A stretch of DNA of 64,000 nt from Candidatus Omnitrophota bacterium (GCA_026387435.1 JAPLLS010000093.1:1059-65058), one strand, 5' to 3'; positions 2,634 through 43,551 are shown, counted from the first letter of the stretch. The notes: generated by a model not told the origin, from the letters alone. Made by a program: numbers and translations.

Positions 2634-5477
2634 ATGAAAACCACCTGTTTTAGATCCTCATGGCCTGGATTCTGGGCGGGGATATTATTTTCACTATCAA
2701 TTGTTTTTTTTACTAAATGCTCGTTTGCTTCTGAATTGCCCCGCTACGATATCGCGGCATCCCTGGATGCTCAAAATCACAGCCTAAAAGCCAAAGAGAA
2801 GGTAGTTTTTACCAACAACTCCGATGTTCCGGTCAACGAAATATTTTTCCATATTTATCCCCACCGCCAATATACCAAAAAAGAGATAAAATTCATGTAT
2901 CAATATTCCGGGTATATTAAGGTTAATCTTTTTCCGGAAGGATTCCAAAGCGGCGATTTGAAGATCAATTCCGCTCAAAGCGCCGGCAAGCCCCTTACCT
3001 ATATAATAGAGGGCGATGATCAAACGATTTTGAAGGTTAAGCTGGATTCCGGATTGAACCCCGGGGAGTCCCGGGAGATCGAGATCGATTTTAGCCTGGA
3101 TATTCCCCATTGCTGGAACAGATTGGGATACCATCGGGATATTATTACCTTGACCCGCTGGTATCCTATTTTAAGCGTTCTGGATAAATCCGGGTGGCAT
3201 AATTATCCGTTTTACATCTATCATCAGCCGTTCTTTAGCGATGCCGCATACTATAAGCTGGAACTGACTTTACCCAAGGAGCAAAAATTAGCCTGCGGGG
3301 CTTATTTAAAAACCGAAACTTTAAATCCCGACAACACCAAAACTTTAGTTTTGGAAAATGAAGCGCCGATGCGCGATCTGGGTTTGGCTATTTCTGCGAA
3401 CTTCCAGGTTTTTTCTTTAAACCAGGACAATTTCCGGATCAATGTTTTTTATCCCCAAGGCGAGCTTAAATTTGCCCGGGAAGCTGCCAATAACGCTGCC
3501 GCGGCGATGAAATTTTACGGCCAGCGTTTTGGAGCCTATCCTTATAAAGAATTCACTATAGCCCCCAGCTACCTGGGGTTCGGCGGAGATCAGTCTTCCG
3601 GGATGATCTTTATCGATGTCCGGATGTTCCGGCTGCCAAGGTTTCTTTGCCGCTATTCTGATTTCATGATCGCCCATGAAACCGGACATCAATGGTTCTA
3701 TAACATCGTCGGCTCGGACGAATACAAAGAGATGTTTCTTGACGAAGGAGTGAATTCGTATTGGCTCCTGCGCCACCTGGAGGATAAGTACGGTTATAAC
3801 GCTCAGGTGATGGGCTTACCTAAAAGCTTGGTCTGGCTGGTTCCGAACTTTTCTTTCCGGGATTCCACCGCCAGCCGTTACATCTACCTGGCCAAGAACG
3901 GCTACGACCGGCCGGTGATCGGCGAGCTTTCCAGTTTCAAAGAACCTTCTTCGATCTTTGCCCTGGCTTATGGAAAAGGTTCTGCGTTCTTAAGCATGTT
4001 GGAAGCCCAGGTCGGCAAAGATGTCTTTGATCGGATCATGATCCATTACGCCCGGGAGTTTCGTTTCAAAAACGCCAGCCTTGACGATTTTATCCGGATT
4101 TGCCGGGAAGAATCCCGGCAAAAGCTGGATGAGTTCTTCCGCCAGTGGCTTAAGACCTCCCGGAGCTGCGATTTCGCGGTTAAATCCGTGCAGCCGGGCA
4201 AAGTTATCCTTGAAAACCGGGGCGACCTTCAAATGCCGGTAAAGACCCAAGTGGTCTTGAATGACGGGACCGAAGTCATCGATCAGTGGACGGGAGAAGA
4301 TAAATTCCGCGAGATAGCTATTCCTAAAGATAAAACAACAAAAGAAGTAAATATTGATCCGGATAAAATCATTGATTTGGACCTTGACCGCACCAATAAC
4401 CATTGGCCCAAAAAATTCAGGTTTAAACCGGTGTCGATATATTTTTTCCCCTGGGAGCTTTCAATTTTTCAAGATAGGGACGCTTACAATGCAGCGGCCG
4501 GGCCTTCTTTAGGCGGCTCTTCAATAGGCGCGGCCGCTTCAGCTCAAAAACCGTACGACCAGGTTATCCGGGCAAGTTCGGCCTATGATTTTAGCGGCAA
4601 GGCAGTGGACTCTAAACTGGGATATGAACTCGACCATATTTTGGGCCGGCATAACAGCCTGGGTTTTGAGATTTTTGATTACGATTCCAGCAAAGATGGT
4701 TTTGACGTTGCCGGAGGTAAGCTTTACTGGCGCAAGGAGCTTTGGCCGGCAGCTTACGGTATTTTCGATGTCAATGACCATGTAACTTTTTATCTAGTTA
4801 AAGACCGTAAATTAGACTCGACTGCGACTTTAAACGGCCAGGAATCCATAACCAACCTTAAGTACGCCAAAAAAGACGAGTCTATATTGGGGATAACCGG
4901 CTCGATGAACAGGTGCGGTCCTTCTTTTGACCCGGATTACGGCTGGAAATTCCTGCCTACGCAGGAATTTTCAGGACATTTTTTAGGCGGCAATCAGTCT
5001 TTTTGGCGGTCAAGCGCCGAGTTGGAAAATTATTATTTGGCCCTTCCCCGTTACCAGCAGAAGCTGGCCAGCCGGATCAAGGTTGGCCTGGGCGGACAAT
5101 TCGACAAGAATCTTTTCCAAATAGGCGGATGGGAAGGTTTGCGCGGCTACGATTTTAAGAGTATCGACGGATCGCGGATGATCCTGGGGAGCCTGGAATA
5201 CCGTTTTCCGGTCCTCGGTGACCTTAAATTTTATTTCCTGGATAATATTTTTTGTTTGAACAAGATCCAGGGCGTGGTTTTTTTTGACGCTGGCAAAGCC
5301 TGGTATTCTGATTTCTCGGCCAGGAATTTCAAGAAAGACGTCGGGTTGGGGCTGAGGATACATCTGGGCGCAGTAGGAATTCTGGAAAAAGCGGTTTTAC
5401 GCCTGGATGTTGCCCGGGCCATCAACGAGCCCAAAGAGGATCCGCATATCTGGGCGGGGATAAACCAGTCTTTTTAA
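2634..5477 (+). CDS. M1-family zinc metallopeptidase domain fused to a C-terminal Omp85/BamA-type (bacterial surface antigen) beta-barrel.
   Basis: An N-terminal signal peptide is present. The motif HETGHQWFYNIVGSDEYKEMFLDEG is HExxH-x18-E. The C-terminus GLRGYDFKS...LGSLEYRFPV...GLGLRIHLG...AGINQSF ends in an aromatic residue, as Omp85 barrels do. Confidence 0.65.
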   Translation: MKTTCFRSSWPGFWAGILFSLSIVFFTKCSFASELPRYDIAASLDAQNHSLKAKEKVVFTNNSDVPVNEIFFHIYPHRQYTKKEIKFMYQYSGYIKVNLFPEGFQSGDLKINSAQSAGKPLTYIIEGDDQTILKVKLDSGLNPGESREIEIDFSLDIPHCWNRLGYHRDIITLTRWYPILSVLDKSGWHNYPFYIYHQPFFSDAAYYKLELTLPKEQKLACGAYLKTETLNPDNTKTLVLENEAPMRDLGLAISANFQVFSLNQDNFRINVFYPQGELKFAREAANNAAAAMKFYGQRFGAYPYKEFTIAPSYLGFGGDQSSGMIFIDVRMFRLPRFLCRYSDFMIAHETGHQWFYNIVGSDEYKEMFLDEGVNSYWLLRHLEDKYGYNAQVMGLPKSLVWLVPNFSFRDSTASRYIYLAKNGYDRPVIGELSSFKEPSSIFALAYGKGSAFLSMLEAQVGKDVFDRIMIHYAREFRFKNASLDDFIRICREESRQKLDEFFRQWLKTSRSCDFAVKSVQPGKVILENRGDLQMPVKTQVVLNDGTEVIDQWTGEDKFREIAIPKDKTTKEVNIDPDKIIDLDLDRTNNHWPKKFRFKPVSIYFFPWELSIFQDRDAYNAAAGPSLGGSSIGAAASAQKPYDQVIRASSAYDFSGKAVDSKLGYELDHILGRHNSLGFEIFDYDSSKDGFDVAGGKLYWRKELWPAAYGIFDVNDHVTFYLVKDRKLDSTATLNGQESITNLKYAKKDESILGITGSMNRCGPSFDPDYGWKFLPTQEFSGHFLGGNQSFWRSSAELENYYLALPRYQQKLASRIKVGLGGQFDKNLFQIGGWEGLRGYDFKSIDGSRMILGSLEYRFPVLGDLKFYFLDNIFCLNKIQGVVFFDAGKAWYSDFSARNFKKDVGLGLRIHLGAVGILEKAVLRLDVARAINEPKEDPHIWAGINQSF

Positions 5478-9075: not shown

Positions 9076-9231
9076 AATTTTTAAAAAAATTATTTTAAAA
9101 AACCATTTTTCCGACGAGAGAAAACTCTTGACAAAAAGCGCAGTTATGGCAAAATTTACATTGTAATCAAGGTAACTTTAAGTAATTTTATGGAGGTTAG
9201 AGTACAAAATTGAAAAACTAAGGAAGTTTTT

Positions 9232-9264
9232 AAAGGCTCTGGTAATTCAAAGGAGCCTTTTTTT
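9232..9264 (+). promoter_or_regulatory. Leader hairpin that sequesters the Shine-Dalgarno sequence, followed by a U-run, immediately upstream of the ATP-grasp/kamA operon.
   Basis: The 5' arm aaaggctc (9232-9239) pairs with gagccttt (9253-9260) over 8 bp, with a 13-nt loop. The 3' arm contains the aaggag Shine-Dalgarno sequence, 11 nt before GTG 9267. A 7-T run follows at 9258-9264. Confidence 0.4.
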
Positions 9265-9266
9265 GT

Positions 9267-10268
9267 GTGAAAAAAATGATGAAAATCGGACTGACTTACG
9301 ATTTAAAAACTGATTACTCGCCTAAAAAAGACGATCCGCCGGATGCTAACGCCGAATTCGACCATCCGGACACGATCAAGTACATTGCCGATGCTTTTGA
9401 GTCCCAGGGTTTTTCGGTGAAAAAAATCGGCAATGTGTCCAGCCTTTTGGAAAACCTCGACAAATTAAACGTAGATATAGTTTTTAATATATCTGAAGGG
9501 CTTATCGGCAGAAACCGGGAATCCCAGGTGCCCATACTTCTGGAGATGGCCGGTGTGCCTTTTGTGGGCGCTGACGCTTTAAGCCTGGGGATATCGTTGG
9601 ACAAGATCATGGCCAAGAAGATCTTTATGGCCGAAGGGATACCTACTCCAAGGTTCGTGGAGGTTAAGTCTGTCGACGGCCTGGATCATCTCGATCATCT
9701 GAAATTCCCTCTTTTTGTCAAGCCTCGCTTTGAAGGATCTTCCAAGGGGTTGACCGAGACTTCCCGGGTAGAGAACAAAGCTGAGCTTAAGACCCAGGTC
9801 GAGCATATACTTTCTGTTTACAAGCAGCCGGCATTGATCGAGGAGTTTATCCGCGGCGAAGAGTTCACTGTAGCTGTCATCGGAAATGACCCGCCGGAAG
9901 CTTTGCCGATCGTACAGATAAAGATAGACGGAGAGCTTAACCTTAAAGACAAGTTTTATACATTCGGCCATATCAAGGACGACAAACTGGAATACGTTTG
10001 TCCGGCACCGATAAGCGAAAGCCTCAGGAAAAAACTTATTGACTTGGCTCTGAAGACTTTTAAAGCCATCGAATGCCAGGATTTCGGCAGGGTGGATTTC
10101 CGGGTCGATGAAAAAGGCAGCCCCTATGTTTTGGAGATTAATCCTCTGCCGTCTTTGTCAACGGAAGACGTCTACAGCGTGATCTCTAAGGTGCTGGGGA
10201 TTACTTACGAGAAGATGCTCGGCAAGATCCTTAACGCCGCGCTCAAGAGGAACAATTTAATAAAATGA
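9267..10268 (+). CDS. D-alanine--D-alanine ligase-family ATP-grasp enzyme (paralog 1).
   Basis: MKIGLTYDLK...DTIKYIADAFESQGF, a central ATP-grasp region and C-terminal LEINPLPSL. The size is typical of Ddl at 333 aa. Confidence 0.7.
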   Translation: MKKMMKIGLTYDLKTDYSPKKDDPPDANAEFDHPDTIKYIADAFESQGFSVKKIGNVSSLLENLDKLNVDIVFNISEGLIGRNRESQVPILLEMAGVPFVGADALSLGISLDKIMAKKIFMAEGIPTPRFVEVKSVDGLDHLDHLKFPLFVKPRFEGSSKGLTETSRVENKAELKTQVEHILSVYKQPALIEEFIRGEEFTVAVIGNDPPEALPIVQIKIDGELNLKDKFYTFGHIKDDKLEYVCPAPISESLRKKLIDLALKTFKAIECQDFGRVDFRVDEKGSPYVLEINPLPSLSTEDVYSVISKVLGITYEKMLGKILNAALKRNNLIK

Positions 10269-11272
10269 AAGTAGCCCTGGCGTACAATTTAAAGAAAGAA
10301 GATAATACTAAGCCCGAGGATTATGCTTCGGAATTCGACTCGGAAGAAACCATCGGTGCTATAGCCGGCGCTTTGCGTTCCCGCGGCCATAATGTCGAGT
10401 ATGTAGAGGCCAGCCAGCCGAATCTTTTGGAAGCTTTTAAGAAAAGCCGCGCGGATATGGTTTTTAATATCGCCGAAGGCGAAAAGGGAAAGTACCGCGA
10501 ATCGGAAATCCCGGCGATCCTTGATTTCCTGGGCATTCCTTATACCGGCTCGGGGACGTTATCGCTGGCGGTAGCTTTGAACAAGGCCTTGACCAAGAAG
10601 ATTTTGAAAGCCGATAACATTCCCACCCCGGCTTTTCAGCTTTTTACGACCGGAAAAGAAGTATTGGATCCCCAATTAAAATTTCCTCTGATCATTAAAC
10701 CGAATTTTGAAGGCTCGGCCAAGGGGATCAACCGTTCCAATGTAGTGGAAAACCAGAAAGATCTTTACCTTAAGGCCAGGGAGCTTATTGATGTATATCA
10801 GCAGGAGGCTCTAGTTGAGGAGTTTATCGAAGGCAAAGAGCTTACCGTCGGGATCTTGGAAAACGGGACTTGCAACGTACTGCCGATTTTAGAGATTGAT
10901 TTTGAATCTGCCAAGAAGTCCGGGGAATTTTTCTATTCCTGGAGGATGAAAGAGTTCCAGGGGGACGATGTGCAGGGGCTGACTCCGACATTTCATTGTC
11001 CGGCCCGCCTGGATAGCCAGACGGAGAAGCTGGTCAAGGATACCGCCGTAAAAACTCACCGGGCGGTCGGCTGTTACGGTATTTCGCGCACCGACATCCG
11101 GTTAAGTAAAAACAATATCCCTTATGTTCTGGAGATCAATCCTTTGCCCGGGCTTAATCCCAAGGAATCTAATTTCCCGATCATGGCTTATGCTGCGGGG
11201 ATGAAATATGATGATATAATCGAGGCGATCCTTACCAGCGCCTATCAAAAAAGAAAGGCGGAAAATGGCTAA
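10265..11272 (+). CDS. D-alanine--D-alanine ligase-family ATP-grasp enzyme (paralog 2).
   Basis: It has the same architecture as the upstream gene, with MKVALAYNLKKED... and C-terminal LEINPLPGL. Its start overlaps the preceding stop by 4 nt. Confidence 0.7.
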   Translation: MKVALAYNLKKEDNTKPEDYASEFDSEETIGAIAGALRSRGHNVEYVEASQPNLLEAFKKSRADMVFNIAEGEKGKYRESEIPAILDFLGIPYTGSGTLSLAVALNKALTKKILKADNIPTPAFQLFTTGKEVLDPQLKFPLIIKPNFEGSAKGINRSNVVENQKDLYLKARELIDVYQQEALVEEFIEGKELTVGILENGTCNVLPILEIDFESAKKSGEFFYSWRMKEFQGDDVQGLTPTFHCPARLDSQTEKLVKDTAVKTHRAVGCYGISRTDIRLSKNNIPYVLEINPLPGLNPKESNFPIMAYAAGMKYDDIIEAILTSAYQKRKAENG

Positions 11273-12449
11273 TACGGCGGTAACCGAAAATCAAAAGTTA
11301 CTCTCCGAAGCTGTTATTGCGCCGCGGCCGGCTAGAAAGTCCCGCGATTACCAGCAGATCAGTCTTTATAAAGAAGTTAACCCGCTGGACTGGGAAGACT
11401 GGCGCTGGCAGATGAGAAATCGGATCACTAAGCTCGATCAGATATCTCAAGTTGTTAATTTGACCAAGGAAGAAGAAGAGGGTATTAAAAACGCCAAGGG
11501 GCATATGGCCATGGCCGTCACCCCTTACTGGGCGACTTTACTGGATCCGGAAGACCCCGCCTGTCCGATCCGGCGGCAATGTATTCCTACGCAAAACGAA
11601 TCCAATATCAGCCCCTATGAGATGGCTGACCCTTGCGGGGAGGACAGCGATTCTCCGGCGCCGCATTTGGTGCACAGGTATCCCGACCGGGTTTTGCTTT
11701 TGGCTACCGAGTCCTGCGCTATGTATTGCCGCCATTGCACCAGAAGGCGGCTGGTCGGCCACGCGGAAAAAGTGGATAATTCCCCGGACCGCTGTGATGC
11801 GGCCATTGATTACATCCGCTCTAACAAAAAGATCCGTGATGTTCTTATTTCCGGCGGTGACCCGCTTACGCTGGAAGACGAAGTGCTGGAAGATCTGTTG
11901 AAGAAATTACGCACTATCCCTCATTTGGAATTCCTGCGTTTAGGCACCAGGGTGCCGGTGACCCTTCCTCAGCGGATCACCGAAAGCCTGGTTTCCATGC
12001 TTAAAAAATACTCCCCGCTTTGGATGAGCATCCATTTCAACCATCCCAAGGAGATAACCCGGCGCACCAAGATTGCCTGCGAAATGCTCGCCGACTCCGG
12101 GATTCCGCTGGGCAGCCAGACCGTACTCTTGAAAGGCATTAATGACCGGCCCAGCACCATGCGCAGGCTCATGCATGACCTTTTGAAGATCAGGGTCAGG
12201 CCTTATTACATTTACCAATGCGACTTAGTCCGGGGAACGCAGCATTTCCGCACTCCGGTCGAAGCCGGAATAAATATAATCGAAAAATTGCGCGGCCATA
12301 CCACCGGCTACGGGGTGCCGACCTATGTCATTGACGCTCCCGGCGGAGGCGGCAAGATCCCGATTAATCCTAATTACGTAGTTTCCCAGGGCAAAGGCAA
12401 ATACGTTTTGCGCAACTACGAAGGAAAGGTTTACACTTACCTGGAGTAA
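11265..12449 (+). CDS. kamA: KamA-family radical SAM enzyme (lysine 2,3-aminomutase type).
   Basis: CAMYCRHCTRR is the CxxxCxxC radical SAM cluster motif. LISGGDPL and a C-terminal Cys-rich tail are typical of KamA/EpmB. Confidence 0.75.
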   Translation: MANTAVTENQKLLSEAVIAPRPARKSRDYQQISLYKEVNPLDWEDWRWQMRNRITKLDQISQVVNLTKEEEEGIKNAKGHMAMAVTPYWATLLDPEDPACPIRRQCIPTQNESNISPYEMADPCGEDSDSPAPHLVHRYPDRVLLLATESCAMYCRHCTRRRLVGHAEKVDNSPDRCDAAIDYIRSNKKIRDVLISGGDPLTLEDEVLEDLLKKLRTIPHLEFLRLGTRVPVTLPQRITESLVSMLKKYSPLWMSIHFNHPKEITRRTKIACEMLADSGIPLGSQTVLLKGINDRPSTMRRLMHDLLKIRVRPYYIYQCDLVRGTQHFRTPVEAGINIIEKLRGHTTGYGVPTYVIDAPGGGGKIPINPNYVVSQGKGKYVLRNYEGKVYTYLE

Positions 12450-12459
12450 GGATTTTCCC

Positions 12460-12488
12460 TTGACCGTCCTAAAATTTCCCCCTATAAT
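12460..12488 (+). promoter_or_regulatory. Sigma70-like promoter upstream of the EF-G paralog.
   Basis: TTGACC (12460-12465), a 17-nt spacer, then TATAAT (12483-12488). An AAAGGAG Shine-Dalgarno sequence lies just before ATG 12641. Confidence 0.5.
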
Positions 12489-12640: not shown

Positions 12641-14575
12641 ATGGATGCCAAAAACAAAAGAAGTGTTATTTTATTAGGCCATGCTCAATCGGGAAAAACC
12701 ACTCTTGCGGAAAGTATCCTCTTTCGCTGCAAAGCTATTTCGCGCAAAGGCTCGACAGCCGAAGGCAACACCACCAGCGACTACAACTGGGACGAAATAG
12801 AGCGAAAATCTTCTATTAACGCCGGGTTTATGTTTTGCGATTATCAGGATATCCGTATCCAGCTGGTGGATACCCCGGGTTTCGCTGATTTTTACGCGGA
12901 GGTTCTTTCCGGGGTGCGTGCGGTGGATAACGCGATCGTGGTTATCGACGGATCAAGCGGAGTGGAAGTGGGGACGGAGAAAGTCTGGGAGCTGTTGGAG
13001 GAAGCCGGGATCCCCAGGATAGTTTTTGTCAATAAAATAGATAAAGAAGGCGTAGACAAAGATAAGATAGTCGAGGACATCCGGAAATCGCTTTCTCCTC
13101 ACGCGGTAGTTTTGAATTCCAGCGCCCTGGAAGAATTGATGGAGCCTGTCGCTGAAAGCGACGACATGCTTCTGGAAAAATATCTAGCCGCGGGCAAGCT
13201 TACTTTGGAAGAAATCAACAGCGGCCTGCATAAAGCGGTTGCCAGCGCCAAGGTATTCCCCGTTCTTTTCGGCTCGGCGCTTACGGACAGCGGTCTTGAT
13301 GAGTTCTTGAAGGCGATCAAGGACGATCTGGTTTCTCCGGATGAACGGCCGAACATGCAGGTTAAAGACGGCGAAGTAAAATCTCAGGAAGCGGCGCCTT
13401 TTTCGGGGTTTGTATTTAAAAGTATATTTGACCCTTATGTCGGGCAGTTGAGTTTGGTGCGGGTATTTTCCGGCAAGCTTGCCGGCAATACGACTTTTTA
13501 CAACGTTAATCAGAAGAACGTGGAGCGTTTCGGCCAGCTGTATTTTCTCCAGGGAAAAGAACAGCGATTGGTGGAAGCGGCTACTTGCGGGGATATCGTA
13601 GCTATTCCTAAATTAAAATTTACTCATACCTCGGATACTTTGGCGGAGGCGGCTCACCCGGTGGTTTTTAATCCCATAGAATTCCCCGAGGGGATGATGT
13701 CGGCTTCGGTAAAACCCCGCACCCGTCAGGACGAAGAAAAAATTTCCCAGGCTTTGGCTAAATTGGTAGCCGAGGATCCTACGTTCAGGGAGAAAGTCGA
13801 CCCGCAGACCAAAGAAATGATCGTTTCCGGGCTGGGGGATCTGCATTTGCACGTGATGATCAACCGGCTCAAGAAACGTTTTAATGTGGAAGTTGAACTC
13901 GGCAAGCCCAAAGTACCTTACAAAGAAACTATTACCCGCTCAACTAAGATCCAGGGTAAATTCAAGCGCCAGTCGGGAGGCAGGGGCCAGTACGGTGACG
14001 TCTGGATTGAGGTGCACCCTCTGGAGCACGGGAAAGGTTTTGATTTCGTGGATAAGGTCGTCGGAGGAGCGATCCCGCGTAACTTCATTCCTTCGGCGGA
14101 AAAAGGCATAGTCAAAGCTATGTCGGAAGGGGTAATTGCCGGCTATCCTGTCGTAGATATGCAGGTAATCCTTTTTGACGGCTCTTACCACGATGTTGAT
14201 TCTTCGGATATGGCTTTTCAGATCGCCGGGTCCATGGCTTTGAAAAAAGCGGTTTCTGCCGCCGGCCCGGTATTGTTGGAACCGGTCATGGAAATAGAAG
14301 TTTTCATTCCCGAAGAGTACCTGGGGGCGGTTTCCGGAGATTTGAATTCCCGCAGGGGGCGCACTCTGGGAATGGAAGCAAAAGGAAGAACGCAGGCTTT
14401 AAGGGCCAGCGTTCCTTTATCGGAAATGTTTACCTACGCCAGCGACTTGCGCTCGTTGACGCAGGGAAAAGGAAGCTTCACCATGAAATTTTCCCATTAT
14501 GAGCAAGTTCCGGGTAAGATGGCGCAACCGGTTATAGCGCATTATCAGGAGCATCATAAAGCGGAAGAAGAGTAA
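12641..14575 (+). CDS. Elongation factor G-family GTPase paralog with a degenerate catalytic motif.
   Basis: G1 is GHAQSGKT and G4 is NKID, both intact. G3 reads DTPGF instead of the canonical DxPGH. EF-G domains III-V are recognisable (RGQYGDVWIEV...). At 644 aa it is shorter than canonical EF-G. Confidence 0.7.
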   Translation: MDAKNKRSVILLGHAQSGKTTLAESILFRCKAISRKGSTAEGNTTSDYNWDEIERKSSINAGFMFCDYQDIRIQLVDTPGFADFYAEVLSGVRAVDNAIVVIDGSSGVEVGTEKVWELLEEAGIPRIVFVNKIDKEGVDKDKIVEDIRKSLSPHAVVLNSSALEELMEPVAESDDMLLEKYLAAGKLTLEEINSGLHKAVASAKVFPVLFGSALTDSGLDEFLKAIKDDLVSPDERPNMQVKDGEVKSQEAAPFSGFVFKSIFDPYVGQLSLVRVFSGKLAGNTTFYNVNQKNVERFGQLYFLQGKEQRLVEAATCGDIVAIPKLKFTHTSDTLAEAAHPVVFNPIEFPEGMMSASVKPRTRQDEEKISQALAKLVAEDPTFREKVDPQTKEMIVSGLGDLHLHVMINRLKKRFNVEVELGKPKVPYKETITRSTKIQGKFKRQSGGRGQYGDVWIEVHPLEHGKGFDFVDKVVGGAIPRNFIPSAEKGIVKAMSEGVIAGYPVVDMQVILFDGSYHDVDSSDMAFQIAGSMALKKAVSAAGPVLLEPVMEIEVFIPEEYLGAVSGDLNSRRGRTLGMEAKGRTQALRASVPLSEMFTYASDLRSLTQGKGSFTMKFSHYEQVPGKMAQPVIAHYQEHHKAEEE

Positions 14576-14714
14576 AAAGTCACAAGTGCTCCCTCGGCAA
14601 GCTTTCGCGGATTTTGTTAAAATCCGCTCAGCCTCGGGATAAATTCGGCCCAATAACTTATGTCGCACTTCGTGCTCCATAAGTTATGGCCTCATTTAAA
14701 GGAGATGTGGATAA

Positions 14715-15419
14715 ATGAAAATAGGAATTTTAGGGACAGATATTTTTACTCCGGGTAAGGCTAATCTGGTAGATGAGCGAGTCAAGACTCTCAAGGCCAT
14801 GTTTAATTCCGCTAAAGAGGTTTATATCCAGGCGGATATAATCACTGACCAGGAAAAACTGGTCGAAGCCGACGGGATAATCGCCCCGGAAAACGCGAAG
14901 CTGGATTTGATCGTCCACGACATGGAGTTTGTGGAAACCAGGCTTAGCCGTGTCGAAGATCCTGCCGAGAAAACGCTTTTGACTAAATTCAAGGACCAGC
15001 TGGATAAAGAAAAGCTGCTTTGCGAACAGGTAATAAGCGAAACGGAAAAAGGCCTTATTTCCGGATATTCGCTCTGGAGCATACGGCCGGTTTATCTGAC
15101 CAAGCCCGGGGAATTGGAAGACAAGAATAAACTGCTTCTTAATGGCTATGCCCATTTCGGCTACATCAGCTTTTTCACCGCCGGGGATAAAGATTCCCAC
15201 GCTTGGAGCATAAAAAAAGGAGTTAGCGCCTGGGAAGCTGCCGGGGCGATCCACTCGGATATCCAAAATGGTTTTATCCGGGCAGAGGTGACCAGCTTTC
15301 AGGATTTGATCGCCGACGGAAGTTTGTCCAAGGCCCGGGCTAACAACCATATCCGCCTGGAGATGAAAGAGTATGTGGTCCAGGATGGGGATTATATGGT
15401 TATCCGCACCAATAAATAA
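14715..15419 (+). CDS. YchF/Ola1-like protein lacking a functional P-loop (DUF933/TGS-containing remnant).
   Basis: The C-terminus GFIRAEVTSFQDLIADGS...MKEYVVQDGDYMVIRTNK aligns with the YchF TGS domain. The N-terminus GILGTDIFTPGKA is a degenerate Walker A. The protein is about 130 aa shorter than YchF. Confidence 0.55.
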   Translation: MKIGILGTDIFTPGKANLVDERVKTLKAMFNSAKEVYIQADIITDQEKLVEADGIIAPENAKLDLIVHDMEFVETRLSRVEDPAEKTLLTKFKDQLDKEKLLCEQVISETEKGLISGYSLWSIRPVYLTKPGELEDKNKLLLNGYAHFGYISFFTAGDKDSHAWSIKKGVSAWEAAGAIHSDIQNGFIRAEVTSFQDLIADGSLSKARANNHIRLEMKEYVVQDGDYMVIRTNK

Positions 15420-15481
15420 GTCACAAGGTTACAAAGTCACACGTCACAAGTAAAAACAAACAAAAATCCTAGGAGACAGCG

Positions 15482-17029
15482 ATGATAAAGATCAAAAGGG
15501 CTTTAGTGAGTGTTTCCGACAAAACCGGTATCGTTGAATTTTGCGCGGCTTTAAGAAAATTCGGCGTGGAGATTCTTTCCACCGGAGGGACGGCCAGGGT
15601 GCTTTCGGAAAACAATATCCCGGTAATTGAGGTTTCCGATTACACCGGTTTCCCGGAGATGCTCGACGGACGGGTAAAGACATTGCATCCTAAGATTCAC
15701 GGTGGGCTTTTGGCTTTACGCGAGAACCCGTCGCATATGAAGACCCTTAAGGAGCACAACATCGGACTTATAGACATGGTGGTGGTCAATCTCTATCCGT
15801 TCGAAAAAACTGTGGCCAAGCCTGATGTCACCCGGGAGCAGGCCATCGAGAACATCGATATCGGCGGCCCGTCAATGCTGCGCTCCGCGGCCAAAAATCA
15901 TCAGTCGGTGGCGGTAGTTTCGAACGCGGGCCAGTATCAGTCGATAATCAAAGAGCTGGAGATCAATAAGGGCTCGATCAGCGAAGAAACCTGCCGGGAA
16001 TTAGCCTGTGCGGTATTTAAAACCACCTCGGCTTACGATGGAGCAATCTTTAATTATTTAAGCAAAAATCAGTCTTCGGGAAAATTCCCGCAGTCGTTGA
16101 ACCTGCAATTCTCCAAGGTCCAGGAATTGCGTTACGGCGAGAATCCTCACCAGAAAGCCGCTTTTTATTCCGAAGGCCAAGAGCTTAAGGGATTGAGCGC
16201 GCTGAAGCAATTATGGGGCAAAGAGCTTTCTTTCAACAATATCCTGGATTTGAATGCCGCAGTTAATTTGATCAGGGAATTCGAGGATCCGGCGGCGGTT
16301 TTCCTTAAACACAATAATCCCTGCGGAGCGGCCGAGAATAAGGATTTGCTTAAAGCTTATAAACAAGCCTGGGATTGCGACAAGCTTTCGGCTTTCGGCG
16401 GGATCATCGCCGTAAACAGGCCGATCGAACTGGCTTTGGCCAAATTGATCGCCAAAAGCGGGTTTCTGGAGTGCATCATCTGCCCGAAGTTTGCTCAGCC
16501 GGCCCTTGAACTGTTAAAAGCCAAGAAGAACCTGCGGCTTCTGGAATTACCGGGCCTCTCTAGTAAAACCGAGGCTTGGGATTTTAAACGGGTAAACGGC
16601 GGGCTTCTGGTCCAGGACGAGGATGTCCTTACTCTTGACCAGAAAACTTTAAAAGTAGTAACCAAAAAAAAGCCGGCCAAGGCGGATATGGAATCTTTGA
16701 TCTTTGCCTGGAAAGTATCCAAGCACGTAAAATCCAATGCCATAATCCTGGCCAAGGGAACTAAGACCGTTGGGATCGGCGCCGGCCAAATGTCGAGGGT
16801 CGACTCGGTGTTCATCACTAAAAGAAAAGCCGGTAAACTTACGAAAAATTCCTGCTTGGCTTCGGACGCGTTCTTCCCTAAAGATGATGCTGTCCTGGAA
16901 GCGGCCAAGATGGGGGTCAAAGCTATAATTCAACCGGGCGGCTCAATTGCCGACGAAGAAATCATCAAGACCTGCGATAAGCATTCAATCTCCATGGTCT
17001 TCACCGGCATTAGGCATTTCCGCCATTGA
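15482..17029 (+). CDS. purH: Bifunctional AICAR transformylase / IMP cyclohydrolase.
   Basis: ALVSVSDKTGIVEFCAALRKFGVEILSTGGTA is the MGS-like domain. The AICARFT core follows and the length is right for PurH at 515 aa. Confidence 0.9.
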   Translation: MIKIKRALVSVSDKTGIVEFCAALRKFGVEILSTGGTARVLSENNIPVIEVSDYTGFPEMLDGRVKTLHPKIHGGLLALRENPSHMKTLKEHNIGLIDMVVVNLYPFEKTVAKPDVTREQAIENIDIGGPSMLRSAAKNHQSVAVVSNAGQYQSIIKELEINKGSISEETCRELACAVFKTTSAYDGAIFNYLSKNQSSGKFPQSLNLQFSKVQELRYGENPHQKAAFYSEGQELKGLSALKQLWGKELSFNNILDLNAAVNLIREFEDPAAVFLKHNNPCGAAENKDLLKAYKQAWDCDKLSAFGGIIAVNRPIELALAKLIAKSGFLECIICPKFAQPALELLKAKKNLRLLELPGLSSKTEAWDFKRVNGGLLVQDEDVLTLDQKTLKVVTKKKPAKADMESLIFAWKVSKHVKSNAIILAKGTKTVGIGAGQMSRVDSVFITKRKAGKLTKNSCLASDAFFPKDDAVLEAAKMGVKAIIQPGGSIADEEIIKTCDKHSISMVFTGIRHFRH

Positions 17030-17047
17030 AATAGGAAATAACTGACC

Positions 17048-18433
17048 ATGTCCTACCTGGAAGTTATAAAATATCTGGACTCTTTCGTTAATTACGAGAA
17101 AAAACCGGACGAGCTTTATCTTGAATCGCTTAAACTTGAGCGGGTGGAAGGTTTCTTAAGGGTTATCGGCCATCCTCAGCAAAGTTTTAAAAGCGTGCAC
17201 GTTGCCGGAACCAAGGGCAAGGGCTCGGTATGCGCTTTTACCGCCTATATCCTGCGCGAGGCCGGATATAAAGTCGGGTTGTTTACTTCTCCGCACCTGA
17301 CTGATGTCAGAGAGAGGATCAGGGTCTTGCGGCCGCAAGATCCCAACAGCAAGCCTGTTGTCGAGGATTTTGAAGGCATGATCCCCAAAAAAGATTTTAC
17401 GGACCTGGTTACCCGGCTCAGGCCCAGGATCGATAAGTACTGCGAAATTTCCCAGTATGGTCCGCTGACGTTTTTTGAGATCTACACTATCCTGGCTTTC
17501 GAGTATTTTAAGGAGCAGAAAGTTGATTTCGCGGTGTTGGAAACCGGTATGGGCGGAAGATTGGACGCTACCAATGTAGTTAAGCCGGTCATTTGCGGGA
17601 TCACTTCGATCAGCTATGACCATACCAATAAATTAGGCAATACCCTCGCGGAGATCGCAACCGAGAAAGCCGGGATCATTAAAGGCGAGGCTGTGACGGT
17701 GATCAGCGCTCCGCAGGAAGAAGAGGTGATCAAGGTTTTAAGGAAGAAATGCGAGGAGTCTGGAGCTGTTCTTTATGAGATAAATAAGGATATAAAATTC
17801 GAACTGATAAGTTTAAACATAGACCATCAAGAATTCAATATCCGAGGCAGCCTGGGCAGGTTTAATAACCTCAAGATTAAATTGCTCGGCTCGCATCAGC
17901 TGTTTAATGCTACCCTGGCCGTAAGCCTGGTTGCGGGTATTTTTATGAACAGCCGCGAGCATTTTAAAGGCGGCGTTTTTAAAAAAGGGCTGCAGAATAC
18001 CTGCTGGCCGGCCAGATTTGAGATAGTCAGCCACGACCCATTGATAATACTCGACGGAGCGCATAATGTCGCCTCGGCCAGGGTATTAAAGGAAACGCTA
18101 AAGCGTACTTTCCCGGATAAGAAAGTGACCCTGGTCCTGGGTATTAGCCGGGACAAAGATGTTTTGGGGATCACCCGGGAGCTTTTTCCGCTGGCCCAAA
18201 GACTGATCTTGACTTGTGCCGATAATTCCCGTGCGGCCAGGCCTGCGGATATCCTTTCAACGGGAAAAGAGTTTTTAACGGACCAGAAAGCTGAAATCAC
18301 TAGGAGTGTCTTGGAAGCTTTAAAAATCGTGCGCAGCAACCCCGGCCGGGATATCCTTGTTCTGGTCGCCGGGTCTTTATTTGTCGTCGGCGAGGCCAGG
18401 GGGATCGTTAAGAACCTGCCTGCTGCCGGTTAG
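17048..18433 (+). CDS. folC: Folylpolyglutamate synthase / dihydrofolate synthase.
   Basis: HVAGTKGKGSV P-loop, a Mur-ligase-like fold and a size of 461 aa. Confidence 0.85.
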   Translation: MSYLEVIKYLDSFVNYEKKPDELYLESLKLERVEGFLRVIGHPQQSFKSVHVAGTKGKGSVCAFTAYILREAGYKVGLFTSPHLTDVRERIRVLRPQDPNSKPVVEDFEGMIPKKDFTDLVTRLRPRIDKYCEISQYGPLTFFEIYTILAFEYFKEQKVDFAVLETGMGGRLDATNVVKPVICGITSISYDHTNKLGNTLAEIATEKAGIIKGEAVTVISAPQEEEVIKVLRKKCEESGAVLYEINKDIKFELISLNIDHQEFNIRGSLGRFNNLKIKLLGSHQLFNATLAVSLVAGIFMNSREHFKGGVFKKGLQNTCWPARFEIVSHDPLIILDGAHNVASARVLKETLKRTFPDKKVTLVLGISRDKDVLGITRELFPLAQRLILTCADNSRAARPADILSTGKEFLTDQKAEITRSVLEALKIVRSNPGRDILVLVAGSLFVVGEARGIVKNLPAAG

Positions 18434-18443
18434 AGGCTCGATT

Positions 18444-19832
18444 ATGACCAAAGACGGTTTGCTGGATACAATTGCGGCTGTTGCTACATCTGTCGGAGTT
18501 GCCGGCATAGGAATCGTGCGCATCAGCGGAAAAGATGCCCTGGTTATCGCGGACAAGATCTTTGTGCCCCGGGACAAAACCAGGGTTTTTGATTTTAAGG
18601 CCTATACTTTGCATTACGGCTGGATTGTTCATCCCTCCGAAAAAACGATTGTGGACGAGGTTCTTCTTGGGGTTATGAGGGCTCCCCGAAGCTATACTCG
18701 CGAGGATGTAGTGGAGATCAATTGTCACGGTGGAATTGTCGCGGTCCGGGCGGTGCTGGAACTGGCCCTGGAAAACGGCTGCCGGCTGGCTAACCCTGGA
18801 GAGTTTACTAAAAGGGCTTTTTTAAACGGCAGGATCGATCTCTCTCAGGCGGAAGCGGTGTTGGATATTATTCAAGCCAAGACCGACGCGGCGCTAAAAC
18901 TGGGCTCAGAACAACTAAGGGGAACTTTATCCGCCGGGTTAAAAAAAATCCGCAAAATTATCCTGGACCAGCTGGTTGTCTTGGAGGCGAACATCGATTT
19001 TCCGGAAGAAGAAATTGGCTCTGCGGATTTAAGGATTATCCGCAAGAGATTGGGAGAGGCGAATTCCCTGCTCAAGGATCTATTGTATAGTTCCGGCCAG
19101 GGAAGAATAATGCGTGAGGGTATCAGTGTGGTTATTTGCGGAAAACCTAATGCCGGCAAATCCTCGCTTCTAAACGCCCTGCTTAAGCAGGAGCGCTCGA
19201 TCGTGACCGCCGTAGCCGGGACCACCCGGGATACTATCGAAGAAATAATCGATATCCAAGGAATTCCGGTGAGGATCGTTGATACCGCAGGCATCCTCGA
19301 ACCCCGCGATCTGGTGGAAAAAAAAGCGATCCAGAGGACCAAAAGATATATTGACCTGGCCGATCTGGTGATCGTCATTTTTGACGGCTCCCGGTCTCTT
19401 TCGGCCGATGACCGGTTGTTGATTAAAAGAGTGAAGAACAAATTGGCCTTGGCGGTGATCAATAAAATAGATCTTTTGCCCAAGATCAATGAGAAGGCGG
19501 TACAAGTTAATTTTAAACAGACGATCAGGATCTCGGCCAAGAAAATGCGCAATATCGGGCTCCTGGAAGAAGCGATTGCCGAGTTGGTCTATAAAGGCCG
19601 CTTGAGATCGACCGAATCAATACTGGTCAGCAATATCCGGCACATCGAGAAAATCAAAAAAGCGCAAAAATTAATTGCCGAATCGCTCTCTTCGCTGGAT
19701 AATAAGATATCTATTGAATTTGTCTCCCAGAATATAAAAGATGCCATCGGTTACCTGGATGATATTCTGGGAAAGAAGTTTTCCGAGGATCTGCTGGACA
19801 GGATTTTCAGCAGGTTTTGTATCGGCAAGTAA
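18444..19832 (+). CDS. mnmE: tRNA modification GTPase MnmE.
   Basis: GIVRISG..., VICGKPNAGKSSLLNAL and the C-terminal CIGK motif. The start is chosen at MTKDG (ATG 18444, with GAGG upstream), not the track's 18357, which overlaps folC. Confidence 0.85.
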   Translation: MTKDGLLDTIAAVATSVGVAGIGIVRISGKDALVIADKIFVPRDKTRVFDFKAYTLHYGWIVHPSEKTIVDEVLLGVMRAPRSYTREDVVEINCHGGIVAVRAVLELALENGCRLANPGEFTKRAFLNGRIDLSQAEAVLDIIQAKTDAALKLGSEQLRGTLSAGLKKIRKIILDQLVVLEANIDFPEEEIGSADLRIIRKRLGEANSLLKDLLYSSGQGRIMREGISVVICGKPNAGKSSLLNALLKQERSIVTAVAGTTRDTIEEIIDIQGIPVRIVDTAGILEPRDLVEKKAIQRTKRYIDLADLVIVIFDGSRSLSADDRLLIKRVKNKLALAVINKIDLLPKINEKAVQVNFKQTIRISAKKMRNIGLLEEAIAELVYKGRLRSTESILVSNIRHIEKIKKAQKLIAESLSSLDNKISIEFVSQNIKDAIGYLDDILGKKFSEDLLDRIFSRFCIGK

Positions 19833-19854
19833 GTTATTATAAATAGGAGAATAA

Positions 19855-20409
19855 ATGGATAAAAAGAAAATAGAAAAATCGGTCAAACTCTTGCTGGAAG
19901 CGATAGGCGAAGACCTTAATCGCCGGGATATTGCCGCTACTCCTAGAAGGGTTGCAGAGATGTACGAAGAAATCTTTTGGGGGTTGACTAAGGATCCGGC
20001 CAAGGAGCTGGAAGTTGTCCTCGATCAGAAACACAATGAGATTGTTCTCTTAAAGGATATCCCGCTCTACAGCATGTGCGAGCATCACCTGCTCCCTTTT
20101 ATAGGTAAAGCCCACGTTGCCTATATTCCCAAGAAAGGAAGGGTCACCGGCTTAAGCAAGCTCGCGCGCGTGGTGGAGATCCTTTCGCGCCGGCCGCAGG
20201 TCCAGGAACGCTTGACCACCCAGATCGCGGATATAATAATGTCAAAACTCAAGCCCCAGGGCTGCATGGTGGTTATAGAGGCGGAGCATTTGTGTATGTC
20301 GATGCGGGGGATCAAGAAACCCGGAATTCTGACCGTGACATCGGCGGTAAGAGGGATATTCCAGGAGAATGAGAAGACCCGTTCGGAAACCCTGTCTTTA
20401 ATGAAATAG
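19855..20409 (+). CDS. folE: GTP cyclohydrolase I.
   Basis: [21 protein letters not shown] is the active-site motif. The size is 184 aa. Confidence 0.9.
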
Positions 20410-23760: not shown

Positions 23761-23913
23761 ATTTTCTCCTTATGTTTTATTTAGCTTCTACCTATAATAG
23801 ACGGCTAAATTCCAAAAATCTAACATAAATTTTAAAAATTTACCTTAAGTTTAAACTTAAAACTTGCTTTTTGGGTTTACTATTATATAATGATAAGATT
23901 AAGAGAGGGCGCT

Positions 23914-24534
23914 ATGAAGAATATCAAAGTTATTATAATCGCGGTCCTGGCGGGAATAACGTTTTTCTGCGTATATAAATATATCGCTTCGGTTCACGAA
24001 AACAATTCTTTGTCCGCCAACATTCGTCAGCTGAATATAGATGTTCAGGCTCTTGAAGGCGAAAAGAACGGGTTAGTCCAGGATTTCGGCCGGGAAAAAG
24101 AAATAAACAGCGCGCTTAACCAGGATATAACTGGTTTAAAAGATAGCTTAGATCAGAGCAAAGAAAGAATGGCGAAGCTTGAAACTGATTTTCAGGCTTC
24201 CCGGAAGACTATTGAGGATTTGAACTCGGAATTCTCCCTGGTGAAGGCGGAAAATACGGCTTTGCGGGATCAGGTTCAGGGGCTGCAGCTGGATATCAGC
24301 CAGGCTAAAGCGGAAAAAGAACAAATGCAGGTGCGGTTAAGTTCTGTAGCCGAGCTTAAGAAAGCTATTAGAGAACTTCGCCAGAAGGCTCGATTGGCTA
24401 AGAAACAAGTTCAGAATCGGATTAAGGCAATAGAGAAAATAATCTTGGGCAATAGCGGATTCTTAGTTAAAAACGGGAAGTCTACGCTTTCTGGAACAAT
24501 CAAAATTAAGGTAGAACCTTTACCGGGCAGTTGA
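23914..24534 (+). CDS. Hypothetical membrane-anchored coiled-coil protein.
   Basis: N-terminal transmembrane segment (IKVIIIAVLAGITFFCV) and a long heptad-rich region. The start may instead be at 23890. Confidence 0.4.
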   Translation: MKNIKVIIIAVLAGITFFCVYKYIASVHENNSLSANIRQLNIDVQALEGEKNGLVQDFGREKEINSALNQDITGLKDSLDQSKERMAKLETDFQASRKTIEDLNSEFSLVKAENTALRDQVQGLQLDISQAKAEKEQMQVRLSSVAELKKAIRELRQKARLAKKQVQNRIKAIEKIILGNSGFLVKNGKSTLSGTIKIKVEPLPGS

Positions 24535-26922: not shown

Positions 26923-27381
26923 ATGACTCCTATACCTATAACCGAATTCGCCGATAAGCTTAGTAAGTTGATGCCGGAGATCGCCAGGGGCACTCTCCGG
27001 CGCGAGGCGTTTGAATTGTCCAGCGGGCACATAACTTTGCCGCAATTCGTTATCTTAAATATGCTGGATAGAGAAGAGGAGCTTCGGATGACGGATATTG
27101 CCCGCGCTCTGGGAGTGACTACCGCGGCGGCCACGGGCATTGTCGACAGGCTGGTGAAATCTTCCTACGCGCAACGCGTTTATGACGCCAATGACAGAAG
27201 GATAATCAAGATCCGGCTCAGCCTTAAAGGCCGGGATCTGGTTCAGAGGGTCAATAAACATAAAAAGCAGAATATAATCGAGATATTCGGCAAGATCCCT
27301 TCCGAAGACCGTGACAGTTTTCTTAAAATACTGATGAAGGTTCACGAGATCGTGACCCAGGACAAGGAACCAGCTAAATAA
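26923..27381 (+). CDS. MarR-family transcriptional regulator.
   Basis: A winged-helix region (ITLPQFVILNML...LTDIARALGVTTAAATGIVDRLV) and 152 aa. Confidence 0.8.
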   Translation: MTPIPITEFADKLSKLMPEIARGTLRREAFELSSGHITLPQFVILNMLDREEELRMTDIARALGVTTAAATGIVDRLVKSSYAQRVYDANDRRIIKIRLSLKGRDLVQRVNKHKKQNIIEIFGKIPSEDRDSFLKILMKVHEIVTQDKEPAK

Positions 27382-29548: not shown

Positions 29549-29566
29549 CCGGGGAGGAATCATAAA

Positions 29567-43375: not shown

Positions 43376-43551
43376 TTGTATCCATCCTTGGGGCGGGTAA
43401 GAAGAAACCGCTTTCAAATTCCGCCCTTGCCCGTCTTGAAAACTACTCTATATATTATATACTTATTATATAAGGTTGAGAGACTCTAGTGCCTTCCAGC
43501 TGGTTACTGGGAGGTCTCTTTTTCTCCACAAAACAAAAAGTTTGTAAAAGT

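Follow-up and report, generated by a model that had tools for sequence, protein, structure and literature searches.

Beta-lysine has few known fates, which are an acetylated osmolyte, the modification of EF-P, lysine fermentation and a few antibiotics. In the EpmB/EpmA system, a KamA-family aminomutase supplies beta-lysine and an ATP-dependent enzyme uses it to form a beta-lysyl-epsilon-lysine isopeptide. The preliminary description of the locus analysed here gave acetyltransferases or EpmA as the known partners of KamA, which agrees with the searchable literature and with general knowledge. A related logic is found in PylB/PylC, where a radical-SAM enzyme rearranges L-lysine and an ATP-grasp ligase joins the carboxylate of the product to N-epsilon of a second lysine (PMC8225853). 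Moreover, in the pboF/pboG pair of the Pseudomonas syringae Pbo cluster, a radical-SAM gene resembling lysine 2,3-aminomutase adjoins an ATP-grasp gene resembling L-amino-acid ligases (PMC8473136). This is the sole literature case of such an adjacency that we found, and it is likened to our locus by its description; it differs in being part of a 16-gene secondary-metabolite island with NRPS/PKS-type genes (PMC8473136). No paper on a module of KamA and a Ddl-like ligase was found in the searchable literature.

We analysed a 64,000-nt stretch of DNA from a Candidatus Omnitrophota bacterium (GCA_026387435.1 JAPLLS010000093.1:1059-65058), hereafter the window, in which ORF calls place three co-directional, overlapping genes, G1, G2 and KamA, on the plus strand in the region 9267-12449. 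The features of this region are as follows.

9128..9155, plus strand: promoter-like site (TTGACA, then CAAAAT after 16 nt, with TG upstream of the latter), some 110 nt ahead of G1; a consensus match only
9192..9264, plus strand: conserved leader element, with GGAGG at 9192-9196, AAATTGAAAAA at 9207-9217, and a hairpin plus T-run at 9232-9264
9279..10268, plus strand: G1, Ddl-like ATP-grasp ligase, 329 aa from the ATG at 9279; the ORF is open from the GTG at 9267
10265..11272, plus strand: G2, Ddl-like ATP-grasp ligase, 335 aa, paralog of G1
11265..12449, plus strand: KamA, lysine 2,3-aminomutase (radical SAM/PLP), short form
12460..12488, plus strand: promoter-like site (TTGACC, then TATAAT after 17 nt), within a gap of 191 nt ahead of an EF-G-like gene

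The coordinates and strand previously assigned to the three ORFs match ours exactly, and for G1 the ATG at 9279 is favoured over the GTG at 9267 by homologs of 329 aa. Overlaps of 4 nt had been proposed for both junctions, which is correct for G1/G2, where the shared sequence is ATGA, but not for G2/KamA, where the overlap is 8 nt (ATGGCTAA).

By its sequence, KamA is a clostridial-type lysine 2,3-aminomutase and not an EpmB. It matches the Clostridium subterminale enzyme (2A5H) with E = 3e-149; in an ungapped alignment its C-A-M-Y-C-R-H-C segment corresponds to C125/C129/C132 and contains the radical-SAM CxxxCxxC motif, and R134, D293 and D330 as well as the PLP-lysine K337 are all retained. 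In glutamate 2,3-aminomutase, R134, D293 and D330 are replaced. The domain calls of the preliminary description were reproduced by Pfam, which finds Radical_SAM (1e-11) and LAM_C, the latter over positions 1-56 of 127, in KamA and Dala_Dala_lig_C in both ligases (G1, 1e-37; G2, 4e-34). KamA passes the KamA-family model TIGR00238 (363 bits, cut-off 199) and reaches 525.2 bits on the AblA model TIGR03820, which has a cut-off of 525.4. This shortfall fits the absence of about 50 C-terminal residues, for nothing in KamA aligns with model positions 361-417. Against 2A5H, KamA stops level with residue 367 and lacks the clostridial C-terminal domain (about 368-416). The models for glutamate 2,3-aminomutase (475, cut-off 650) and for the arginine enzyme (425, cut-off 600) were not passed, and neither was TIGR03821 for EpmB (248 bits, cut-off 369). 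Thus, the first enzyme is the same as in AblA/AblB, and some archaeal modules discussed below also carry a GNAT, but the partners are ATP-grasp ligases and not an AblB acetyltransferase, and neither the window operon nor the Omnitrophota loci have a GNAT. Similarly, the locus resembles EpmB/EpmA in that a KamA-family aminomutase feeds an ATP-dependent enzyme, but the ligase here is of the ATP-grasp type whereas EpmA is a class II tRNA-synthetase paralog.

G1 and G2 are paralogs, as had been stated, with 37% identity, and both display the three-domain ATP-grasp fold of the Ddl type. Ddl and VanA are their nearest relatives in sequence and fold, and the catalytic machinery is kept: in an alignment of G1, G2 and ten relatives with DdlB (sequence identical to 1IOV), DdlB residues K97, K144, E180, E187, R255, D257, E270 and N272 are invariant or nearly so. 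However, both proteins fall below the family cut-offs, with scores of 188.2 (G1) and 197.2 (G2) against 243 on the best NCBIfam Ddl model, PRK01372, and still further below on the remaining Ddl and Van models, and the substrate-site residues are altered. Among the positions E15, H63, Y216 and S281/L282, which form the D-Ala subsite of DdlB, E15 is replaced by Asp and H63 by Glu; E68/D69 becomes R-x-R-E, and the K215/Y216 loop is unconserved. S281, which in Ddl holds the carboxylate of the second D-Ala, is replaced by Asp in G1 only, and the Ser is retained in G2. In addition, the N-terminal motif reads D-x-x-A-E-F-D in G1 and G2 but G-G-x-S-x-E in Ddl, and, unlike Ddl or VanA, this type of ligase occurs in an operon or a fusion with KamA and is present in archaea. 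A weak sequence relationship (3VOT, E = 2e-8) links G1 and G2 to BacD/YwfE, BL00235, carnosine synthase and the Ngg enzyme of NAGGN, none of which is coupled to an aminomutase, unlike G1 and G2.

The stop and start codons overlap at both junctions, and the linkage of these genes is beyond chance, as their order is identical in each of the 73 Omnitrophota species loci long enough to be informative. The preliminary description had called for a comparison of the neighbourhood in relatives, and in all of these loci G1-(G2)-KamA are adjacent although the flanking genes vary. G1 is the ligase that is always paired with KamA in this phylum, whereas G2 is absent from 13 of the 73 loci and is therefore dispensable in part of the Omnitrophota, where the core consists of G1 and KamA. 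The two-ligase trio that had been described is therefore correct for the window but does not hold as the general core. The scan of genome contigs returned Omnitrophota only, and the wider distribution is drawn from a representative search, fusion homologs and a metagenome scan. Fusions of KamA to an ATP-grasp domain (KamA-G) make up about 108 of the best 120 database matches and are labelled as coming from Thermoplasmatota, Methanocellales, Woesearchaeota, Nanoarchaeota, Spirochaetales and Deltaproteobacteria; the reverse order, G-KamA, is found in one protein (P0185). Downstream of KamA-G fusions there is usually a further ATP-grasp gene and sometimes a GNAT, and in a rough neighbour-joining tree, together with a motif table, G2 clusters with the ATP-grasp domain of the archaeal KamA fusions. 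KamA also adjoins one or more ligases in 15 of 21 diverse metagenome loci with at least 4.5 kb on both sides. Many relatives are fused double ATP-grasp proteins, and in other lineages the module also includes an ATP-grasp ligase of a third type and, in some cases, an acetyltransferase. Since related ATP-grasp proteins also occur without KamA (P0283, P0183, L130, L132), the family is not limited to beta-lysine.

Taken together, adjacency, fusions in both orders and recurrence lend strong support, at the level of linkage, to the earlier proposal that KamA and the ATP-grasp ligases act in one pathway leading to a beta-lysine amide or peptide. We believe it reasonably probable that the three genes belong to one operon whose product, made independently of ribosomes, is an amide or (iso)peptide derived from beta-lysine, and by analogy G1, G2 and KamA are best read as following the logic of PylB and PylC (with PylD), the nearest match, in which adjacent genes likewise encode a radical-SAM and an ATP-grasp enzyme; G1 and G2 themselves do not qualify as PylC-type ATP-grasp enzymes. 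KamA would convert L-lysine into beta-lysine (3,6-diaminohexanoate) by radical-SAM/PLP chemistry, a step that is well supported. G1 would then consume ATP to activate a carboxylate, most likely that of beta-lysine, as the acyl phosphate and would join it to an amine. Because G1 has Asp in place of the Ddl Ser at S281, the acceptor amine probably has no carboxylate next to it. It could belong to a polyamine or be the epsilon-amine of either lysine or beta-lysine, and the product could be an isopeptide such as N-epsilon-(beta-lysyl)-lysine, comparable to what PylC makes with methylornithine. G2, in which the Ser is kept, may append a further residue or may partner G1 as a heterodimer; fused double ATP-grasp proteins are common among relatives. 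Which carboxylate is activated and which amine attacks cannot be read from gene context alone. The end product would be a small cationic or zwitterionic compound, and our leading guesses for its role are a compatible solute or a polyamine-like polycation.

The promoter-like site at 9128..9155 matches 10 of 12 consensus positions in a consensus scan, and the site at 12460..12488, which matches 11 of 12, probably marks the 3' boundary of the operon. The GGAGG...AAATTGRAAAA leader motif is a genuine conserved motif: its composite form occurs once in the window, where none is expected by chance. Among 175 loci it is found in 17, with a single copy in each that lies directly ahead of G1, and at no other place. 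The hairpin arms are AAAGGCTC and GAGCCTTT, the T-run ends 2-14 nt before the G1 start, and 75 of 81 loci carry a terminator-like hairpin in the 260 nt upstream of G1. The 3' arm contains AGGAG, which could serve the GTG start of G1. A riboswitch upstream of G1 was considered and rejected, as Rfam gave no match to the leader at the gathering threshold, nor up to E = 5, and RNAalifold supported the terminator stem alone. A conserved leader peptide is unlikely because the mini-ORF that starts at the TTG of the motif varies from 3 to about 21 codons across loci. A small ORF (77-83 aa) upstream of G1 in one related locus (L001), considered as a carrier or precursor peptide, lacks an equivalent both in the window and elsewhere among the loci and was dismissed as spurious.

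In Omnitrophota the neighbours of the operon are housekeeping genes, encoding an EF-G-like protein, PurH, FolC, MnmE and FolE, and neither an acetyltransferase, an exporter nor an osmotic-stress gene was found as an operon neighbour, so that a solute role is unsupported by these surroundings there. Other lineages differ. A GNAT partner is present in one module (L095) and a GNAT is fused to an ATP-grasp domain in another (L092); these partner GNATs resemble SpeG, RimI and PseH and do not match the AblB model. Na+/H+ exchangers flank two modules (L092 and L093), with MscL and CorA also beside the latter, and a PAS kinase and a sigma54 NtrC-type regulator lie inside a further module (L135). Together with the S58 peptidase beside the double-ligase fusions of L086 and L159, described below, we take these associations as pointing to a small molecule. 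We also examined two other roles. A part in lysine fermentation was rejected, as neither beta-lysine 5,6-aminomutase nor another lysine-fermentation enzyme was found among the annotated neighbouring genes, and so was an anti-phage defence system, as no PADLOC model matched G1, G2 or KamA.

Several other explanations have to be weighed against ribosome-independent synthesis of a small beta-lysine compound. In the first, G1 and/or G2 would be true D-Ala-D-Ala ligases for peptidoglycan, with kamA merely in the same operon. We regard this as very improbable; ddl was absent from the loci of about 20 kb, an observation that covers those loci and not the rest of the genome, and the preliminary description had itself named genuine Ddl identity as a point against its proposal. 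Both proteins score under every NCBIfam Ddl cut-off (188 and 197 against 243 on the best model), the D-Ala site is changed (E15 to Asp, H63 to Glu, Y216 unconserved and, in G1, S281 to Asp), and roughly 108 of the best 120 matches carry this kind of ligase as a fusion with KamA, among them MAGs labelled Thermoplasmatota, Woesearchaeota and Nanoarchaeota, archaea that are not known to make murein. On the proteins and loci covered here, canonical Ddl identity was therefore rejected as improbable. Scores, altered sites and the wide linkage to KamA together make both a cell-wall Ddl role and an EF-P role unlikely. The latter belongs to the quite improbable explanation that the ligases replace EpmA and attach beta-lysine to a protein, be it EF-P, another translation factor or a target of RimK/LysX-like tagging. 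The EF-G-like neighbour is lost or displaced in many related loci where G1-(G2)-KamA is intact, and no LysW-like carrier ORF is present. KamA being an EpmB with epmA nearby had been named as a further point against the proposal, but KamA is of the lysine-aminomutase type (248 against 369 on TIGR03821) and neither epmA nor efp is nearby: no EpmA-like (tRNA-synt_2) ORF was found among the annotated window genes, and phmmer, with an approximate E. coli EF-P sequence as query, returned nothing from the window or from 1.43 Mb of related loci. Archaea, which are not known to have EF-P, carry the module, and GNATs as partners and ion transporters as neighbours are more in keeping with a small molecule than with a protein target. 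An EF-P/EpmAB role was thus rejected.

A polymeric product deserves more weight, although we still consider it unlikely. The ligases would build an oligo- or poly-(beta-lysine) polycation that serves as a nitrogen store or polyamine substitute, with a logic like that of cyanophycin and with dedicated peptidases elsewhere. This would agree with the two or three paralogous ligases per module and the many fused double ligases, with the NtrC-type sigma54 regulator within L135-type modules, and with the Asp of G1 at the S281 position, which suits an acceptor amine far from a carboxylate. Moreover, a peptidase of family S58 (DmpA/BapA), a family that includes beta-aminopeptidases, adjoins double-ligase fusions in two independent loci (L086 and L159), resembling a synthetase/hydrolase pair, but these S58-linked loci lack KamA. 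In addition, Ddl-type enzymes normally catalyse one ligation, the archaeal GNAT partner suggests a capped small molecule and not a polymer, and a polymer would be a special case of the synthesis that we favour. Finally, ATP-grasp ligases modify other cofactor tails, and the operon could add beta-lysine to the tail of a folate or pterin cofactor. In almost every Omnitrophota locus it is located directly upstream of PurH-FolC, after which, as in the window, MnmE and FolE follow where the locus reaches that far, and one clade has a PabB-like gene, in some loci with a PabC-like gene, between KamA and PurH. However, this synteny is found in a single phylum, where the order of the genes may have been inherited, a separate promoter-like site and variable genes stand between the operon and PurH, and the modules outside the Omnitrophota (L083, L092-L095, L135) are not near folate genes. 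Because the synteny is absent outside the phylum, we keep this link at a very low probability, as the most remote of these explanations.

Ddl-like ATP-grasp ligases emerge here as a fourth, widespread partner of the aminomutase, and the recurrence of the pairing across bacteria and archaea points to an undescribed beta-lysine-containing compound. We suggest, tentatively, that the module could make a metabolite class undescribed so far, a beta-lysyl isopeptide or short oligo-beta-lysine that is made without ribosomes, may resemble N-epsilon-(beta-lysyl)-lysine and is acetylated where a GNAT is present, which would be a standard constituent of Omnitrophota, many uncultivated archaea and Deltaproteobacteria-like bacteria and would act as a polyamine-like polycation or compatible solute. 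If this were true, the G1-type, G2-type and clade-C ligases would add three new classes, defined by substrate, to the Ddl branch of the ATP-grasp superfamily. In databases these proteins are labelled either "D-alanine-D-alanine ligase", which is probably wrong since it implies cell-wall chemistry where a wall may be absent, or "KamA family radical SAM protein", which is uninformative. A functional result for this three-gene system would provide a function for thousands of database entries and might bring to light a new solute or polycation of uncultivated lineages whose cells are reported to be very small.

The preliminary description had proposed that kamA and two Ddl-type ATP-grasp ligase genes form one translationally coupled unit, and the analysis bears out this three-gene arrangement, with co-directional open reading frames at 9267-12449 of the window:

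9267-10268, + strand: G1, Ddl-like ATP-grasp ligase (open from GTG; 329-aa homologs indicate ATG at 9279)
10265-11272, + strand: G2, its paralog
11265-12449, + strand: KamA, lysine 2,3-aminomutase

The 4-nt overlaps also described hold for the G1/G2 junction (ATGA) and fail for G2/KamA, where the overlap is 8 nt (ATGGCTAA). The GC content of the region equals that of its surroundings, and the nearest genomes are Candidatus Omnitrophota MAGs, with protein identity of up to 93%.

KamA aligns nearly gap-free with the Clostridium subterminale lysine 2,3-aminomutase crystal structure (2A5H; E = 3e-149) and retains the three cluster cysteines, R134, the PLP lysine K337, and D293 and D330, the aspartate pair holding lysine's epsilon-ammonium group. 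The protein passes the KamA family model (363 bits, cut-off 199) and falls 0.2 bit short of the AblA equivalog model (525.2, cut-off 525.4); the shortfall is due to its C-terminus, which stops where residue 367 of 2A5H aligns, so that the last ~50 residues are missing. Together, the retained residues and the model scores allow us to infer safely that KamA would convert L-lysine to beta-lysine and, by extrapolation from the clostridial enzyme, the product may be the (3S) isomer. The models for glutamate 2,3-aminomutase (475, cut-off 650) and arginine 2,3-aminomutase (425, cut-off 600) were failed, as was that for EpmB (248, cut-off 369), the identity that, together with a nearby epmA, the preliminary description had seen as fatal to its proposal.

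G1 (188 bits) and G2 (197 bits) lie below the Ddl cut-off of 243 and miss every curated Ddl cut-off. When aligned, with their relatives, to E. coli DdlB (sequence identical to 1IOV), they conserve the ATP-binding and catalytic residues K97, K144, E148-G149, S151, E180, E187, R255, D257, E270 and N272. Among the DdlB positions that presumably line the D-Ala sites (E15, H63, E68/D69, the K215/Y216 loop and S281), E15 is replaced by Asp, H63 by Glu and E68/D69 by R-x-R-E, and the K215/Y216 loop shows no conservation; at S281, every G1-type protein has Asp and a shorter loop, while Ser is kept there in G2 and most relatives. The family carries the N-terminal signature D-x-x-A-E-F-D-x-x-x-T and a second motif, F-N-I-A-E-G-x-x-G-R-x-R-E-S. 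Both appear to be competent amide ligases of the ATP-grasp type that would act on something other than D-Ala plus D-Ala. In a rough NJ tree, the Omnitrophota G1 proteins form their own clade, G2 clusters with archaeal KamA-fused domains, and clade C, a divergent third ligase type found in modules outside Omnitrophota, stands apart.

The linkage of KamA to these ligases is tight, ancient and marked by repeated fusion. With each GTDB species represented by a single genome, a scan yielded 80 Omnitrophota loci (50-93% identity), and KamA lies directly downstream in all 73 that extend past G1/G2; this is the neighbourhood conservation that the preliminary description proposed to look for. G2 is absent from 13 of the 73, where G1 abuts KamA; the core in Omnitrophota is therefore G1 plus KamA. 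The flanking genes vary upstream (M20 peptidase, PAC2, HAD, UPF0280) and downstream (EF-G-like, YchF-like), and G1-(G2)-KamA is unchanged. The start of G1 is preceded by a conserved leader:

9192-9264: GGAGG, about 12 nt, AAATTGRAAAA, about 20-30 nt, then a GGGCTC/GAGCCC hairpin with a T-run (counterparts at L003 9912-9987, L005 430-504, L010 461-545 and others)

This composite motif occurs in 17 loci, a single copy in each, invariably ahead of G1 and not elsewhere. In the window, 2-14 nt separate the end of the hairpin from the G1 start codon; in related loci the spacing is usually 5-70 nt and reaches about 270 nt, and several loci have a TATAAT box 3-7 nt before the ATG. The hairpin may act as a conditional terminator; alternatively, it may close a tiny upstream transcript, with a leaderless mRNA starting after it.

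For linkage outside Omnitrophota, 1.84 billion cluster representatives were searched exhaustively, and 1120 clusters matched at E <= 1e-30; the best 150 include numerous proteins of about 650-720 aa with two fused ATP-grasp units, as well as two KamA fusions, one per domain order. With one KamA-ATP-grasp fusion (P0244) as query, about 108 of the best 120 matches share its Radical_SAM + LAM_C + Dala_Dala_lig_C architecture, with sources that include Thermoplasmatota, Methanocellales, Woesearchaeota, Nanoarchaeota, Spirochaetales and Deltaproteobacteria. Four loci illustrate the context:

L093, Woesearchaeota: fusion and second ATP-grasp gene, beside MscL, Na+/H+ and Na+/Ca2+ exchangers and CorA
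L094, Deltaproteobacteria: fusion and two more ATP-grasp genes
L095, Methanocellales: fusion, ATP-grasp gene and GNAT
L092: fusion and ATP-grasp-GNAT fusion, then FKBP-domain gene, DUF8156 gene and two Na+/H+ exchangers

The GNATs of these modules look like SpeG, RimI and PseH, not like AblB. Divergent G1-like proteins, used as seeds for a metagenome scan, retrieved 80 loci, 21 of them with at least 4.5 kb on both sides; among these, KamA occurs in 15, a clade C ligase (hallmark E-D-A-S-I-G replacing E-G-S-S-K-G) in 14, and both together in 11. In a common layout, the first ligase is separated from KamA by a PAS histidine kinase, a sigma54 NtrC-type regulator and a receiver protein; in one bacterial lineage (L135 7000-10358; also L125, L129, L136 and others) this insert precedes KamA and the clade C ligase, which implies signal-dependent expression there. 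Some relatives occur without KamA. In two independent metagenome loci (L086 8001-11432, L159 1295-4810), KamA is absent and a fused double Ddl-like ATP-grasp gene is directly followed by a Peptidase_S58 gene (DmpA/BapA family), a pair that may act as synthetase and peptidase for an unusual peptide. At L083 (5022-9258), a RaSEA-like radical-SAM protein (173 bits, cut-off 212) and a PLP enzyme resembling GntC/VioD cyclodehydratases are encoded ahead of a G-KamA fusion whose domain order is the reverse of that in the archaeal fusions; the product there may be a different lysine- or arginine-derived compound.

How should the operon be read? Ddl is nearest to G1 and G2 by sequence and fold, but the missed cut-offs, the changed D-Ala-site positions and the archaeal KamA-ligase fusions make true cell-wall Ddl enzymes unlikely. 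Modification of an EF-P-type protein by beta-lysine is likewise unlikely, given that KamA is of the LAM rather than the EpmB type, that no efp was found in 1.43 Mb of related loci, that the module is also present in archaea, and that GNATs accompany it. A link to folate is suggested by synteny only within the phylum: downstream of the operon (window 12641-20409; also L091 9932-15251, L054, L057, L061, L063, L070 and L072), a PurH-FolC order is conserved across Omnitrophota, followed where the locus extends, as in the window, by MnmE and FolE (GTP cyclohydrolase I), and one clade has a PabB-like insert between KamA and PurH, in some loci with a PabC-like gene. A defence-system search with the module proteins gave no matches.

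The wider window also encodes:

63-971, 968-2626, 23890-24534: ORFs of 302, 552 and 214 aa, with no Pfam match at E <= 1e-5
2634-5477: 947-aa protein, its upstream position conserved in many Omnitrophota loci; the L001 ortholog unusually combines Peptidase_M1 (aminopeptidase N-like) and an Omp85 outer-membrane barrel in one chain
12641-14575: EF-G-like protein, 644 aa
14715-15419: YchF C-terminal-like ORF, 234 aa, adjoining the EF-G-like gene in many Omnitrophota loci
25005-25811: L,D-transpeptidase with LysM domain
26923-32716: ordinary tripartite efflux operon (MarR regulator, outer-membrane factor, HlyD-type adaptor, AcrB-type RND pump)
43489-58470: giant ORF, 4993 aa, GTG start, in a region of higher GC (0.50-0.55)

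The EF-G-like protein passes the EF-G subfamily model NF009381 and lies below the EF-G equivalog cut-off (646.8 against 659.4); since its gene is missing from several related lineages, it is probably a second, specialised paralog. The YchF-like ORF matches only positions 272-367 of TIGR00092, and inspection found no obvious P-loop motif in its N-terminal half. The L,D-transpeptidase shows that the source organism has murein.

Among known systems, PylB/PylC is closest in logic: there a radical-SAM lysine mutase is paired with an ATP-dependent ligase, by which two lysine-derived units are condensed (PMC8225853). PylC attaches a lysine-derived amino acid at the N-epsilon of lysine, the chemistry proposed here for G1. 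AblA/AblB and EpmB/EpmA share the first enzyme with the module and differ in the second. In open-access papers and bioRxiv preprints, the only published case found of neighbouring LAM-like and ATP-grasp genes is pboF/pboG, part of a secondary-metabolite cluster of Pseudomonas syringae with no known product (PMC8473136), and searches of the same full texts found no report of the G1-G2-KamA module.

At the sequence level, the module comprises an aminomutase whose active-site residues are intact and two ligases that keep the catalytic core of ATP-grasp enzymes but not the substrate sites of Ddl. Phylum-wide adjacency and fusions support the earlier one-pathway reading of KamA and the two ligases as a pathway linkage. 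We propose that beta-lysine made by KamA would be used directly by one or both ligases to form one or more amide bonds, yielding a free beta-lysine amide or (iso)peptide. For at least one ligase, our preferred acyl-phosphate donor is beta-lysine, because the acidic residue for the donor ammonium is kept in shorter form (Glu to Asp) and further conserved acidic side chains (the E at the position of H63 and the E of R-E-S) could bind the second amine. In G1 an Asp takes the place of the carboxylate-binding Ser, and for this reason we prefer as acceptor an amine that lies far from any carboxylate. As to the role of the product, the archaeal loci, with their GNATs and ion-transport neighbours, suggest a solute; an oligomer or nitrogen-related compound is suggested by the multiple ligases, the S58 peptidases and the NtrC-type regulator; and the housekeeping context and phylum-wide conservation suggest a constitutive cell component in Omnitrophota. 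Small, widespread and mis-annotated, the module would couple an aminomutase to a new kind of ligase partner, and would bring at least three uncharacterised subfamilies into the Ddl branch.
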